A stretch of DNA of 64,000 nt, taken from positions 380,719 through 444,718 of the forward strand of contig CAVYGB010000006.1 in the NCBI GenBank assembly GCA_963767925.1, read 5' to 3'. Positions 1 to 7,198 of this stretch are shown here, in pieces. How positions within the stretch are numbered: position 1 is the stretch's first letter; each line of letters begins with the position of its first letter. Position numbers and translations under genes: made by a program. A model generated the notes under the pieces. That model saw only the letters and a program-made list of their open reading frames with translations, did no database searches and was not told the origin of the DNA. The DNA comes from an uncultured delta proteobacterium. GTDB taxonomy: Bacteria; Myxococcota_A; Polyangia; Fen-1088.

Positions 1-127
1 GCGCAGCCAGGGAACCCGGCTACTTTCTCACTCACTTTCCCGGCCGGGCCTGCACGTCACGAGGAAACCAGGCTATTTTTCTGCGACAGTCTCCCCTGTA
101 CCGTTGTCCAAGCCAGGAGCCGACCCC

Positions 128-2116
128 ATGACCCAGACACCCGAACGACGAGAGTTCCAGGCCGAGGTGAAGCAGCTCCTCGACCTGATGGTCCATTCGC
201 TCTACTCGGACAAGGACATCTTCCTGCGCGAGCTGATCTCGAACGCCTCGGACGCCCTCGACAAGCTGCGCTTCGAGCAGCTCACCCGCACCGAGCTGGC
301 CGGCGGTGGCGAGCTGCACATCCGCCTCGAGGCCGACCGGGAGCGACGGACGCTCTCCATCCTCGACAACGGCATCGGGATGACCCGGGACGAGGTGGTC
401 CGGAACATCGGCACCATCGCCAAGTCGGGCACCAAGGAGTTCCTGGCGGCGGTGAAGGAGGCGGAGAAGAAAGAGGTGCCGCCCGAGCTGATCGGTCAGT
501 TCGGGGTCGGCTTCTATTCCGCCTTCATGGTGGCGGAGAAGGTCGTCCTGGTCACCCGGCGGGCGGGCGAGAGCCTGGCCACCCTCTGGGAGTCGACCGG
601 CGACGGCTCCTACAGCATCGGCACCGGCGAGCGCGAGCAGGCCGGCACCACCGTCACCCTCCACCTCAAGCCCGCTGACAGCGAGCAGGGCCTGCGCGAC
701 TACACCGACGAACACGCCGTCCGCGACATCATCAAGCGCTACTCGGACTTCGTGGCCTACCCGATCCGCATGAAGGTCTGGCGCAGCGAGGCCCCCGGAG
801 GAGGCAAGGGAGCAGACGAGGGGGAAGGCGCGGGCGAAGGTCAAGCCCCCGGCGCCGCCCCCCCGACCGCGGGGGCCAAGGTCCTGCAGGACGAGACCCT
901 GAACTCGATGAAGGCCATCTGGGACCGCCCCAAGGGGGAGGTGTCGGAGGCCGAATACCGGGAGTTCTACCGCCACATCTCCCACGACTGGACCGACCCC
1001 CTGCGCACCATCCCGGTGAAGATGGAGGGCACGCTCGAGGCCTACGCCCTGCTCTACCTCCCGGCCCGGGCGCCCTTCGACCTGTACAGCGCCGAGATGA
1101 AGCGGGGCGTGCAGCTCTACGTCAAGCGCGTCTTCGTGATGGACGAGTGCAAGGATCTGCTGCCGCCGCACCTGCGCTTCGTCAAGGGGGTGGTCGACGC
1201 CCACGACCTGTCGCTCAACGTCTCCCGGGAGATGCTGCAAAAAGATCGCCAGATCCAGGTCATCCGCAAGCAGCTCGTCAAGAAGGTCTACGCCACCCTC
1301 GAGGAGATGAAGCGCGACGCCGCCAAGGACTACCTGCAGTTCTGGGCCGAGCTGGGGCCGGTGCTCAAGGAGGGGCTGCTGGCCTACGACGTGGGGGACA
1401 AGGACAAGCTGCTCGACCTGCTGCTGGCCCGCTCGACCGCCCACGCCAGCGAGCCGACCTCGCTCGAGCACTACGTCGGCCGCATGAAGGAGGGCCAGGA
1501 CGCCATCTACTTTCTCACCGGCTCCTCGCCCGAGGCGGTGGCCCGCTCCCCCCTGCTGGAGGCCTTCGTCGACAAGGGCCAGGAGGTGCTGCTCTTCTCC
1601 GACGCCATCGACGAGCTGTGGCTCGAGCGGGCGCCGCGCTTCCGGGACAAACCCCTGCGCTCGATCGCCCGGGGCGAGGTCAAGCTCGGCTCCGAGGAGG
1701 AGCGCAAGCAGGCCGCCGAGGCGCTCGAGGAGAAGCAGAAGCAATACGTCGACCTGTTCGGGGCCTTCCGCGCGCACCTGCAGGACGACGTCAAGGAGGT
1801 GCGCCTGTCGAGCCGCCTGACCTCCTCGCCGGTCTGCCTGGTGGGCGACGAGCACGACCCCACCCCCCGCATGCTGAAGATCATGGAGCAGCTCGGACAG
1901 AAGCCGGAGAAGGTCCGGCGCATCCTCGAGCTGAACCCCAGCCACCCCCTCATCCCCAAGCTGCAGGCCATCTTCCAGGAGAACAGGGCCGACCCCCGGC
2001 TCGAGCTGTACGCCCACCTGCTGCTGGGACAGGCCCACCTCGCCGACTCGGGCCAGGTCCCCGACCCCGCCGCCTTCAGCAAGGTCCTCGCCGACGTCAT
2101 GAACCGCGGCCTCTGA
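128..2116 (+). CDS. htpG: Molecular chaperone HtpG (Hsp90)
   Basis: FQAEVKQLL, FLRELISNASDA, DNGIGM, IGQFGVGFYSAF and LNVSREMLQ motifs; ATG at 128. Confidence 0.97.
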   Translation: MTQTPERREFQAEVKQLLDLMVHSLYSDKDIFLRELISNASDALDKLRFEQLTRTELAGGGELHIRLEADRERRTLSILDNGIGMTRDEVVRNIGTIAKSGTKEFLAAVKEAEKKEVPPELIGQFGVGFYSAFMVAEKVVLVTRRAGESLATLWESTGDGSYSIGTGEREQAGTTVTLHLKPADSEQGLRDYTDEHAVRDIIKRYSDFVAYPIRMKVWRSEAPGGGKGADEGEGAGEGQAPGAAPPTAGAKVLQDETLNSMKAIWDRPKGEVSEAEYREFYRHISHDWTDPLRTIPVKMEGTLEAYALLYLPARAPFDLYSAEMKRGVQLYVKRVFVMDECKDLLPPHLRFVKGVVDAHDLSLNVSREMLQKDRQIQVIRKQLVKKVYATLEEMKRDAAKDYLQFWAELGPVLKEGLLAYDVGDKDKLLDLLLARSTAHASEPTSLEHYVGRMKEGQDAIYFLTGSSPEAVARSPLLEAFVDKGQEVLLFSDAIDELWLERAPRFRDKPLRSIARGEVKLGSEEERKQAAEALEEKQKQYVDLFGAFRAHLQDDVKEVRLSSRLTSSPVCLVGDEHDPTPRMLKIMEQLGQKPEKVRRILELNPSHPLIPKLQAIFQENRADPRLELYAHLLLGQAHLADSGQVPDPAAFSKVLADVMNRGL

Positions 2117-2144
2117 GGCGGCGGTGGTTGCTTCACCACCGGAG

Positions 2145-2273
2145 GGAGAGGCGGGCGCCGGGCTGGCGACCGCCCCTCACCCGGCGGGCAGACGCGCCAA
2201 CACCTCTCCCCACGGCAGACCGCGGGGAGGTGTTGGCCTGGAGGCGCGCCCCGAGGGGTGAGGTGACCTCTCC
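2145..2273. repeat. Nested inverted repeats (structured intergenic element or terminator) between convergent genes
   Basis: GGAGAGG(2145-2151)/CCTCTCC(2267-2273), CCTCACCC(2175-2182)/GGGTGAGG(2256-2263), GCCAACACCTC(2196-2206)/GAGGTGTTGGC(2227-2237). Confidence 0.65.
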
Positions 2274-2293
2274 GGGTCGATCCAGGCGGCCGG

Positions 2294-3082
2294 TCAGCGC
2301 TCGAAGAACGAGGCTTGCTGGAAGCGCAGGCCGGCGAGGATCTGCTCGACCCTCGTGGCGGAGAGGGAGCCGATCCGTTCGCCCAGGCGGGTCTTCTCGA
2401 CCGAGTCGATCTGCGACACCACCACCACGCTCTGGCGGGGCAGGTTCCCCTCGCCCACCTCGAGCAGGACGTTGCCCGGCTCGGTCGCTCGCTGCAGGTT
2501 CGTCGTCAGGGCGCACACCACCACCGTCGGGATGCGGGCGTGGTTGAAGACGTCGTCCTGGACCACCACGTGGGGGTGGGCGGGGCCGGCGGGCGACCCT
2601 CCCGTCTCCACCGGAGGGATCCAGTACAGGTCCCCGCGGTCGATCCGCGCGGCAGCAAGCGCAACCAGCGCGACCGGGCCCGCCGGCAGGGGCCGGAGGG
2701 GCGCGGGCGGATCGCCCCCGGTCAGCAACGAGGCGAGCAGGTCGGCCTGCAGCCGCAGCCGGGCGGCCTCCTCGGCCTTGCCGAGCGCCGTGTAGGTCGC
2801 CGCCGCCGCCAGCCGCGCCTCCAGCTCACCCTCGACGATGGTGGTGACCGCCGCCGGGCTCAGCACCCGGCGGGGGACCTCCCCTGCCCCCAGGCCCACC
2901 ACGCCACCGGCGATGCGCCCCGACTGCCCCGCTGGCGGCGCCGCGCTGACCTCGACCGCCTCGGCGTTGTCGATCGCGGCCAGCGTCTCGCGCATCACCG
3001 CCACCACGGCCGCGTCCTGGCCCAGGAGCGCCTGGCGCAGCGCCGCCCGCAAGACGCCCTTCCACGCCTCGACGCCTCTCAC
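2294..3082 (-). CDS. Fusion of a GatB/YqeY-like helical domain and a PemK/MazF-family endoribonuclease toxin
   Basis: N-terminal LRAALRQAL...RETLAAIDNAEAV...GAGEVPRRVL...AARLRLQADLL (YqeY-like). C-terminal IDRGDLYW...HPHVVVQDDVFN...VVVCALTT...QSVVVVSQIDSVEKTRLGERIG (PemK/MazF). GTG start at 3082 is inferred. Confidence 0.8.
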   Translation of the reverse strand: MRGVEAWKGVLRAALRQALLGQDAAVVAVMRETLAAIDNAEAVEVSAAPPAGQSGRIAGGVVGLGAGEVPRRVLSPAAVTTIVEGELEARLAAAATYTALGKAEEAARLRLQADLLASLLTGGDPPAPLRPLPAGPVALVALAAARIDRGDLYWIPPVETGGSPAGPAHPHVVVQDDVFNHARIPTVVVCALTTNLQRATEPGNVLLEVGEGNLPRQSVVVVSQIDSVEKTRLGERIGSLSATRVEQILAGLRFQQASFFER

Positions 3083-3129
3083 ACTGTCACCGCCGCGGCC
3101 TGGCCTGCTCGGGAAACCGCGGTTGCGCC

Positions 3130-5413
<2,284 letters not shown>

Positions 5414-5758: not shown

Positions 5759-7198
5759 ATGGATGCCATGGATCGGATGAGACCACTCCTGCTCGCCGCG
5801 CAGGTGGGCGCTCTGCTGACCTCGACGGCGATGGCCCAGGAGCCGGGAGGGAAGGAGAGGGAAGAGCGGGAGGCCGCGTCCGACCGCGAGCTGTCTGCGC
5901 CCGCGCGGGTGGACGTGACCCCGGTCGCCCGGGACGAGGAGATCCGCCAGCGCCTGCAAAGCGTGCTCGAAGCGACGGACTGGTTCGTCGGCCCCCGGGT
6001 ACGGGTCGAGCAAGGCGTGGTCTTCCTCGGTGGGCGGGTGGAGACCACAGAGCTCAAGAGGTGGGCCGGCGACCTGGCCGGCAACACCCAGGACGTCGTC
6101 GCCGTGGCCAACCAGATGCAGGTCATCGAGCCACCGACTTGGGACTTCCAGCCGGCGTGGAACGGGTTGCGCGGGCTGTGGCGCGACCTCATCCGCTCGC
6201 TCCCGCTCCTGGTCCTGGCGCTGCTCATCCTGCTGCTGTCGGGCGGGATCGGCTTGCTGGCCACCCGGGCGGCCCGGTCGCTTCTCCGGCGGCGGCTGCG
6301 GGCCAATCTGCTGCGCAACGTGATCGCTCGCGCCGCCGGCCTGCTGGTCGTGCTGGCCGGCGTCTACCTGGTTCTGAGAGTCTCCGGCCTGACTCAGCTG
6401 GCCTTGACGGTGGTGGGCGGTACCGGCCTGATCGGCCTGATCCTGGGCATCGCCTTCCGGGAGATCACCGAGAACTTCCTGTCGAGCATCTTTCTCAGCA
6501 TGCAGCGGCCGTTCGAGACCGGCGACCTGGTCGAGGTGTCCGGGGTGACCGGGTACGTACAGCAGCTCAACATGCGCACGACTGTCGTCATGACCCTGGA
6601 AGGTAACCTCGTGCAGATCCCCAACGCCACGGTGTACAAGAGCACCCTTCGCAACTTCACCACCAACTCGAACCGGCGCGAGGACTTCGTGGTGGGCATC
6701 GGCTACGAAAACTCCATCAACGAAGCGCAGGAGGTTGCCCGCCGGGTCCTGACCGACCACCCCGCAATCCTGAAAGAGCCCGCGGCCTCGGTGCTGGCCG
6801 ACAGCTTGGGGCCGGCCACCATCAACCTGCGCGTGTACTTCTGGCTCAACGGCCGGGAGCACAGCTGGCTGAAGGTCCGCTCCTCGGTGATCCGCCTCGT
6901 CAAGCGGGCGTTCCAGAGACACGGCATCTCGATGCCGGACGACGCCCGCGAGGTCGTCTTCCCCGACGGGGTCCCGGTCAGAATGATCGAAGGCGGCGTG
7001 AGAGCCGGGCCAGGGGAGCCCGAGCGACGGATCCCGGCCGATCTGTCGCGCGAGGATGTCGCCGCCGCCTCCACCCCGGCCGAAGAAGGTCTCTACAGCG
7101 AGGCAGGGACCATCGAGGAGCAGGCCCGCCAGGTGCAGCCGCTCAGGAACCAGGAAAACCTGCTCGACACCGCTGGCTCGACCGATCGCCCTTCTTGA
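5759..7198 (+). CDS. Small-conductance mechanosensitive channel with N-terminal BON domain
   Basis: Signal-like N-terminus; VRVEQGVVFLGG...VVAVANQM (BON); TM helices; GIAFREITENF...RPFETGDLV...IPNATV (MscS). Start among 5759/5768/5777 is uncertain. Confidence 0.9.
   Translation: MDAMDRMRPLLLAAQVGALLTSTAMAQEPGGKEREEREAASDRELSAPARVDVTPVARDEEIRQRLQSVLEATDWFVGPRVRVEQGVVFLGGRVETTELKRWAGDLAGNTQDVVAVANQMQVIEPPTWDFQPAWNGLRGLWRDLIRSLPLLVLALLILLLSGGIGLLATRAARSLLRRRLRANLLRNVIARAAGLLVVLAGVYLVLRVSGLTQLALTVVGGTGLIGLILGIAFREITENFLSSIFLSMQRPFETGDLVEVSGVTGYVQQLNMRTTVVMTLEGNLVQIPNATVYKSTLRNFTTNSNRREDFVVGIGYENSINEAQEVARRVLTDHPAILKEPAASVLADSLGPATINLRVYFWLNGREHSWLKVRSSVIRLVKRAFQRHGISMPDDAREVVFPDGVPVRMIEGGVRAGPGEPERRIPADLSREDVAAASTPAEEGLYSEAGTIEEQARQVQPLRNQENLLDTAGSTDRPS

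Follow-up and report, generated by a model that had tools for sequence, protein, structure and literature searches.

A short YqeY-type domain fused to a MazF-type toxin domain: a candidate partner of solitary MazF proteins

A gene on the minus strand, at positions 2294..3082 of a 64,000-nucleotide (nt) stretch of DNA from an uncultured delta proteobacterium (contig CAVYGB010000006.1; the whole stretch is referred to as the window), encodes a protein that is almost certainly a single chain of a YqeY-N-type four-helix part, a linker, and a PemK/MazF toxin domain. The YqeY-N part may be a dedicated partner of the toxin domain, an antitoxin-like built-in brake of the ribonuclease (RNase), in a fusion derived from an operon. 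We give this reading a probability of about 0.45. The toxin domain very probably belongs with MazF-mx, reportedly described by Nariya and Inouye in 2008 as the solitary MazF of Myxococcus xanthus. MazF-mx is a textbook orphan toxin, and the fusion, together with a coupled two-gene form of the same components, names a concrete, previously unlinked candidate partner for it. If the reading is true, it offers a first way into the function of a large family (1124 representatives) of short YqeY-like proteins of unassigned role, and brings a MazF protein into the small group of known single-chain toxin-antitoxins.

Organization of the fusion gene and protein

The fusion gene is a single uninterrupted open reading frame (ORF) of 262 codons and a stop codon, which starts with GTG at position 3082 and ends at positions 2294-2296. 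The GTG start fits the MRTVEAWK-type N-termini of homologues in the alignment. The frame is open with a G+C content of third codon positions (GC3) of 0.85-0.96 along all three parts of the gene. The N-terminal domain (N-domain; residues 1-122; 2717..3082) is of the short YqeY-N type, as indicated by the AlphaFold2 (AF2) model, phmmer, and the presence of PF09424 in its relatives. It is formed of four helices with residue ranges 4-20, 24-42, 76-99, and 103-120, and the second and third helices are separated by a glycine-rich insertion loop (residues 43-75; 2858..2956). The N-domain is followed by a proline-rich linker with the sequence GGDPPAPLRPLPAGP (residues 123-148; 2639..2716) and by the PemK/MazF endoribonuclease domain (residues 149-262; 2297..2638), which is identified by Pfam, profile, and Foldseek comparisons and carries the motif H169-P170-H171 (2570..2578). 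All of these elements are on the minus strand. Codons 119-158 contain no in-frame ATG, GTG, or TTG; therefore, the PemK domain cannot be made separately from an internal start.

The AF2 model of the fusion protein, calculated from a 62-row alignment, has a mean predicted local distance difference test score (pLDDT) of 83.2 and a predicted template modelling score (pTM) of 0.53. Both domains are predicted with confidence, whereas the linker is disordered, with pLDDT values of 47-73. A run with a seven-row alignment gave a pLDDT of 48.6 and was set aside in favour of the 62-row run. The initial annotation of the window, made from the letters of the DNA, had described one continuous ORF with a helical N-domain of about 120 amino acids (aa), a proline-rich linker, an HPHVVVQ motif, and a full PemK/MazF domain; all of these elements were recovered by the analysis.

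Conservation of the fused architecture

A word-indexed search of 5.8 billion proteins, in which 8000 candidates were scored, identified 259 matches with E ≤ 0.001, and 120 clusters were listed. Five metagenomic clusters (P0003, P0004, P0005, P0006, and P0008) have the full architecture, with 97-100% coverage, 58-69% identity, and lengths of 239-248 aa, which answers the call of the initial annotation for full-length homologues. P0007 has this fused form too, but is a shorter call. Both halves are conserved in the seven-row alignment of the fused proteins, and their linkers vary in length, from about 26 aa in the window protein down to only a few in P0003. Fused proteins are rare: six clusters and that of the window itself, compared to 5349 short stand-alone clusters at E ≤ 1e-3. 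In a lineage sample of 41 genomes, the full-length fusion is present only in the genome of the window. The N-domain is encoded as a separate protein in a genome of the same genus (G001; 146 aa) and in G023 (128 aa), and G034 encodes the toxin type without the N-domain.

The fusion is real and not an accident of assembly, because five clusters share its architecture and a split relative (locus L099, described below) exists. That the ORF in the window is nonetheless a mis-assembled or frameshifted two-gene operon is highly improbable. Such an origin would fit a linker about 20-30 aa longer than in most homologues, and public runs contain one identical 151-nt contig piece, at positions 2948-3098, and nothing across 2639-2716. 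However, the continuous architecture is repeated in independent assemblies of other samples, the frame is open with high GC3 throughout, and there is no start codon for a separate PemK gene. A soil metagenome, sharing 0.10 of words, is the only DNA run listed as matching the window, and no RNA run is listed.

The N-terminal half is a short YqeY-N-type domain

The N-domain of the window protein scores below the threshold of the Pfam YqeY family (12.1 bits, cut-off 27, E 0.21). Its relationship to YqeY is apparent only by profile, through its relatives. An exhaustive phmmer search of 1.84 billion representatives (50% clustering) identified 1124 relatives when the threshold was set at E ≤ 1e-3; 248 of these also passed E ≤ 1e-10. 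Of the 150 relatives that were listed, almost all have 117-135 aa, the whole of which is taken up by the domain, and P0006 alone is fused to PemK. An alignment of the N-domain of the window with 67 short stand-alone proteins from this list has 68 rows, of which 65 match PF09424, with a best E of 3e-13. The profile of the alignment matches the solved structures of YqeY (PDB 8xjg, E 5e-10; 8xje, 1e-6; 1ng6, 7e-5), covering only residues ~6-44 and ~46-97 of their 148-153 residues. The C-terminal domain of YqeY (residues ~92-146), which resembles the tail of GatB, is missing, and the window protein has the PemK domain in its place. Thus, the YqeY/GatB-like assignment of the initial annotation holds for the YqeY-N part, as judged from the profile of the relatives, but not for the GatB-tail-like half. 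GatB's tail domain, corresponding to YqeY-C residues 92-146, is implicated in contacts with the D-loop and variable loop of tRNA (PMC2811023).

Unlike canonical YqeY and the helical and tail region of GatB, the N-domain contains a glycine-rich insertion of about 30 residues, IAGGVxGLGAGEVxRR, between helices 2 and 3. The fused set has no variation at I57, A58, G59, G63, L64, G65, A66, or R71. In the 68 N-domain relatives, conservation reaches at least 90% at G63 and G65 and is complete at R71. The model confidence of the loop is low, with pLDDT below 50 at residues 55-62 and 64-66. Proteins of the N-domain family are mildly acidic, with a mean net charge of -3.1 (range -10 to +3).

Forty-four proteins of 144-459 aa contain the N-domain. 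Five of them are PemK fusions, one is joined to an arginase, one to an amidohydrolase, and the others are single-domain proteins, so PemK is the only recurrent fusion partner. The arginase (PF00491) and amidohydrolase (PF04909) fusions are P0417 and P0419, respectively. In the 355-aa protein P0225, the YqeY-N domain is located at the C-terminus, behind a hydrophobic, membrane-like N-terminal part. A full-length YqeY is also encoded separately in the genome of the window (C3; 73.5 bits, profile positions 3-143). The nearest Atlas clusters of the N-domain, a lead only, are named "YqeY-like" and are commonest in Actinomycetota. According to PMC10727445, the direct targets of WhiB7 in M. abscessus, induced by ribosome-targeting antibiotics, include MAB_2956, a hypothetical protein of the "GatB/YqeY superfamily".

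The toxin half belongs to a subfamily with an HPH motif

Residues 149-253 of the window protein match the Pfam family PemK_toxin (PF02452) with an E of 1.3e-21 and 77.2 bits, relative to a cut-off of 23.1, over profile positions 2-106 of 109. In NCBIfam, there is only a sub-threshold match to the MazF equivalog (15.7 bits, compared to 120), and PADLOC has no family matching the whole protein or either half. A toxin profile was built from 62 sequences: the window protein, six other fused proteins, and 55 of the 120 listed relatives. It matches MazF6/MazF-mt3 in the PDB with an E of 7e-22. The model of residues 160-250 has pLDDT values of 81-96, and the best Foldseek matches of the toxin half are MazF-mt3 chains, with target-normalised TM scores of 0.81-0.93 and 33-37% identity. 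The toxin half is thus predicted to have the beta-barrel fold of the MazF/CcdB type. MazF-mt3/MazF6 of Mycobacterium tuberculosis (PDB 5hk0, 5hkc, 8zws, and 9ikd) is its closest solved structure. It differs from the window protein in having an RRP loop instead of HPH, a MazE-type antitoxin partner (named in the title of 8zws), and no N-terminal domain.

The arginine of the RP motif of MazF proteins is catalytic. The window protein does not contain this arginine in the region of strands beta1-beta2, and His169 occupies its position. In the profile alignment, His169 corresponds to the arginine of the RRP motif of MazF6 and of the VRP motif of S. aureus MazF. Both H169 and P170 are invariant in the 62 sequences of the subfamily, and all 24 residues that are invariant in this alignment are retained in the window protein.

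The subfamily is strikingly uniform and has many stand-alone members: in a search restricted to proteins shorter than 144 aa, 5349 of 5354 candidates reached E ≤ 0.001. The best 120 short stand-alone proteins have 117-139 aa and are 75-83% identical to the toxin half of the window protein, and those with names are PemK/MazF toxins of Archangium, Stigmatella, Sorangium, Polyangium, and Kofleriaceae. The 80 species-representative loci inspected are mostly from Myxococcota and also include Singulisphaera, Lysobacter, Luteimonas, Rhizobacter, and a metagenome-assembled genome of Rubrobacteraceae. The HPH motif is present in 78 of these loci, and the proteins end 94-102, mostly 95, residues past it. 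The N-domain is not encoded at any of the 80 loci, and no ORF family (at least 60 aa within 2.5 kb, or at least 35 aa within 500 nt) occurs next to the toxin gene in more than 5 of 78 loci. A search of IMG/VR viral contigs gave 63 pattern matches and no relatives.

Two candidate elements upstream of the stand-alone toxin genes were rejected. Long open frames, considered as domains, are arginine-rich read-through of high-GC DNA. A conserved upstream element, considered as a hidden antitoxin or RNA, consists of the codons of the N-terminal tail and a short leader. The DNA shared upstream of the toxin core spans about 50-120 nt, and about 145 nt in one pair, with the exception of near-identical Sorangium genomes. 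The locus from the planctomycete Singulisphaera acidiphila (L009) shares 77-87% DNA identity with those of Archangium and Sorangium over the first codons and up to ~90 nt upstream. This suggests that the solitary toxin gene and its leader may have spread horizontally between myxobacteria and the planctomycete.

The HPH-type gene is the sole PF02452 match in three of three Myxococcus genomes, and because of this the HPH subfamily is very probably the solitary MazF-mx group. The toxin domain of the window protein is 74-75% identical to Myxococcus loci L052, L053, and L064, and 72% to L078. The substitution of arginine by histidine and the missing antitoxin gene are then traits of the subfamily. 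The initial annotation was right that the window gene has the HPH motif and no MazE gene, but neither is peculiar to it. None of the 78 subfamily loci has an adjoining antitoxin gene. Whereas MazF-mx stands alone, the window domain is preceded by 148 residues that include a folded YqeY-N domain. By likeness to MazF-mx, the toxin half is expected to be an active dimeric sequence-specific endoribonuclease that inhibits growth. Reviews (PMC4803016 and PMC5408214) describe M. xanthus as having one mazF and no mazE, a MazF-mx product that cuts GU^UGC, and a disputed role of MrpC as its antitoxin.

Both flanks of the fusion gene were checked for a conventional antitoxin gene of the MazE, ribbon-helix-helix (RHH), or AbrB type, and none was found. 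The 47-nt spacer that separates the stop codon of katG from the start of the fusion gene (3083..3129, minus strand) and the 177-nt gap to htpG contain no ORF, in line with the earlier remark that katG, 47 bp away, leaves no space for an antitoxin ORF.

The toxin domain also occurs in other fusions among metagenomic proteins (P0016, P0078, P0095, P0106, and P0033). Its partners are an Arr-ms rifampin ADP-ribosyltransferase (E 4e-41), GNAT acetyltransferases placed before or behind it, a VOC (glyoxalase/bleomycin-resistance) domain, and a weak match to the P-loop family AAA_18. According to precomputed Pfam assignments, GNAT is present in five and VOC in three of the 120 listed relative clusters. 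The enzyme partners are all of small-molecule-modifying, resistance types, which may hint at a common theme.

A split relative encodes the two halves as overlapping genes

A metagenome scan with the N-domain alignment identified at least 23 loci. One of the 23 listed loci, L099, has the N-domain gene as an upstream, translationally coupled partner of a mazF gene. On this 1189-nt contig, the N-domain gene extends from 636 or 660 to 1019 and mazF starts at 1016, which results in a 4-nt ATGA overlap of stop and start codons. The N-domain gene ends with ...CTGCTATGA, which includes the ATG at which the mazF ORF starts. The ORF begins with MTKTNPGEPAATRPARIHRGD..., the usual N-terminus of the stand-alone members, and reads MTKTNPGEPAATRPARIHRGDVFWIGPDDSRGPVPSYSHPHVVVQ... 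up to the end of the contig, 58 codons in. Because its mazF has a normal stand-alone N-terminus, L099 is a true two-gene coupled operon and not a frameshifted fusion. The fused protein P0004 retains "..PTATRSARIDRGD" of the tail of an L099-type N-domain, which points to an origin of the fusion by loss of the stop/start junction in a coupled operon in which the partner gene precedes the toxin gene.

A partner gene followed by the toxin gene with a 4-nt overlap is the layout of type II toxin-antitoxin operons. The genome of the window itself provides an example on contig 8 (L001, 1489..2093, minus strand), where a gene for an 87-aa RHH protein (CopG-type; PF01402, E 2e-4) overlaps the downstream gene of a 115-aa PemK with an RRP motif. 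Such mazEF/pemIK pairs share with L099 the order of genes and the overlap. However, their partner is a DNA-binding RHH or AbrB protein, unlike that of L099 and of the window, and in the window the two parts are one ORF.

The N-domain tree contains 57 sequences; L102 and L109, which nearly duplicate L101 and L103, were excluded, as were L113, which has an internal deletion, and the incomplete L119. Its eight PemK-linked rows require 4 label changes, compared to 7.7 in shuffles, and none of 500 shuffles was as low. P0008 and P0271 group with the stand-alone L098 (Shimodaira-Hasegawa-like approximate likelihood ratio test (SH-aLRT) 98), and the main PemK-linked group is interleaved with stand-alone L105, L097, and L103. 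The starred branches cannot be explained by fewer than two origins or losses, so the association of the N-domain with PemK is recurrent. The PemK-domain tree includes 45 of the 120 short proteins, 15 relatives from the wider search, 12 other fusions, 8 fused proteins, L099, and an outgroup. In this tree, 56 of the 78 inner branches are open, and thus the toxin half neither shows nor excludes a single origin of the fusion. An alignment mixing fused, PemK-only, and N-only rows was not used, as its N-only rows were split over both domains.

Co-occurrence of YqeY-N and MazF-mx-type genes

An order-level sample comprised 151 genomes around the Myxococcus genome G041, with MazF-mx-type genes called at E ≤ 1e-58. 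The YqeY-N gene is present in 30 of the genomes and the MazF-mx-type gene in 43, one of which is the unpublished genome G191. The toxin gene occurs in 29 of the 30 genomes with YqeY-N and in 14 of the 121 without it, G191 being among the latter 14. The sampled genomes are kin, and the co-occurrence figures therefore overstate the association. The two genes are never adjacent: they are located on different contigs or more than 100 kb apart. YqeY-N proteins of 10 of these genomes are 58-79% identical to the N-domain of L099. Stand-alone N-domain genes have no conserved neighbour in 10 Myxococcales loci, nor was one seen by eye among the listed metagenome ORFs.

Given the operon, the fusion, and the co-occurrence, the YqeY-N protein is a testable candidate partner of solitary MazF-mx. 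It is conceivable, albeit unlikely, that short YqeY-N is the missing partner (an antitoxin or activity switch) of all solitary MazF-mx proteins, acting mostly in trans from an unlinked gene. The window fusion and the L099 operon would then be the Rosetta-stone forms that reveal the partnership. A full-text literature search, with supplements and the primary MazF-mx papers outside its scope, found no link of YqeY with antitoxins, only incidental co-mentions.

The YqeY-N part as a possible built-in brake

The favoured reading is that the YqeY-N part restrains the RNase to which it is fused. An operon of a YqeY-N gene followed by mazF, with the ATGA overlap, would have lost its stop/start junction and become a single chain. 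The MazF domain would form a dimer and cleave single-stranded RNA, with His169 replacing the arginine of other MazFs. The N-domain, held on a flexible, protease-accessible linker, would keep the MazF domain inactive. Release might occur by cleavage of the linker or of the disordered glycine-rich loop, or by binding of a ligand or partner to the N-domain. We infer that the domains touch, which of them regulates the other, and what sets off the release. The brake is favoured because the split relative has the gene order and coupling of type II systems, the toxin subfamily has no linked antitoxin, and the N-domain is not basic. The single-chain toxin-antitoxins EzeT and CapRel likewise combine a toxin domain with a proposed cis-control domain and have two-gene relatives. 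They differ from the window protein in the types of toxin (zeta kinase in EzeT, toxSAS in CapRel) and of control domain, and cis-inhibition in the window protein is our hypothesis.

Several observations weigh against a brake. The N-domain family is almost always toxin-free, and therefore must have a function of its own. In 22 of the 23 listed metagenome loci the N-domain protein is alone, with no PemK found by profile search, and these loci include L105, L097, and L103, the nearest rows to L099. The latter is the only split locus among those listed, and its contig ends inside mazF. Conversely, MazF-mx-type genes that stand alone, without the N-domain, number in the thousands. Three genomes that carry the toxin type, those of Sorangium cellulosum So ce56, Singulisphaera acidiphila, and Labilithrix luteola, gave no N-domain match among the 119-150 first-look candidates that were scored. 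Since the toxin is present in genomes without the N-domain, including the 14 of 121 Myxococcales, it is independent of such a brake. Pfam and NCBIfam scans of the fusion protein gave no RHH, AbrB, or helix-turn-helix matches, and the toxin domain is also fused to the Arr, GNAT, and VOC enzymes, which are not antitoxin-like. The pTM of only 0.53, with a disordered linker, does not indicate contact between the domains. A complex prediction for two PemK domains and one N-domain had a score of 0.01 (mark 0.32) and weighs neither way on binding. The initial proposal of a built-in antitoxin has thus gained indirect support from the L099 overlap and the clustering of PemK-linked N-domains.

Alternatively, the YqeY-N part could be a targeting module that docks the nuclease on the translation apparatus (the ribosome, tRNA, or a protein near bS21) and thereby selects the RNA to be cut; this is less likely than a brake, though it is the more plausible of the two functional and neutral alternatives. 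The protein would then be a MazF nuclease aimed by an appended domain. The homology of the N-domain to YqeY, established by profile, is compatible with such docking. To our knowledge, YqeY itself has no known function, which limits this argument. The conserved glycine-rich loop resembles a putative binding site, MazF-mt3/MazF6 is the nearest relative of the toxin half with a solved structure, and, as the stand-alone YqeY-N family has its own function, a fusion would carry the RNase to the site of that function. YqeY genes are described beside rpsU (encoding bS21) in several bacteria and as co-regulated with it in Francisella (PMC13374519), and YqeY-like appendages are reported to aid tRNA binding by GatB (PMC2811023) and by GlnRS of D. 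radiodurans (PMC1865053). However, the element of GatB that contacts tRNA is the tail domain, which the window protein lacks, and the N-domain family is mildly acidic, unlike a usual RNA binder. The idea of the initial annotation that the N-domain steers the toxin to tRNA is weakened by both points.

It is also possible, but improbable, that the fusion is neutral: a small deletion would have joined two unrelated neighbours, and the halves would act separately or the toxin half would be barely active. The promiscuity of the toxin domain in fusions fits this explanation, as do the single arginase and amidohydrolase fusions of the N-domain and the rarity of the fused form. Both families are context-free singletons in most genomes and usually live apart. 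Nevertheless, the fused proteins retain 58-69% identity and conservation of both halves, and the link to PemK recurs in one N-domain subclade, including a second, well-separated group of P0008/P0271 with L098. This recurrence and conservation make a neutral fusion less likely, and the coupled-operon intermediate L099 also speaks against it.

Genomic neighbourhood of the fusion gene

The fusion gene is flanked upstream, on the same strand, by katG (3130..5382, minus strand), which encodes a catalase-peroxidase (Pfam peroxidase, E 9e-75, in two stretches). The 47-nt spacer between the two genes contains no terminator-like site, and it folds no better than its shuffles (z -1.3). The initial annotation had suggested that the fusion gene may be co-transcribed with katG under oxidative stress. 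A katG neighbourhood was not seen beside the N-domain or PemK gene of any relative among the loci inspected; the contig of the same genus stops 16 nt beyond its match. The G+C content of the fusion gene is 74.9%, compared to 69.0% for the whole window, and locally reaches 72-78% over the fusion gene (positions 2000-3200), relative to 65-70% in htpG and katG. The high G+C content fits either acquisition from elsewhere or a composition rich in alanine, glycine, and proline.

Downstream, the fusion gene converges with htpG (104..2116, plus strand), which encodes Hsp90 (Pfam HSP90, E 1e-118). Between the convergent genes is a strong, nearly perfect hairpin (2196..2238, minus strand), found by folding of a 76-nt stretch with an energy of -47.4 kcal/mol (z -3.3), a stability equalled by 1 of 200 shuffles. 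It has the look of a bidirectional terminator without a U-run. Divergent from katG, at positions 5759-7198 on the plus strand, is a gene for a mechanosensitive channel of the MscS type, 479 aa long and with a BON domain at the N-terminus; together with htpG and katG, this gene forms a row of stress-related genes.

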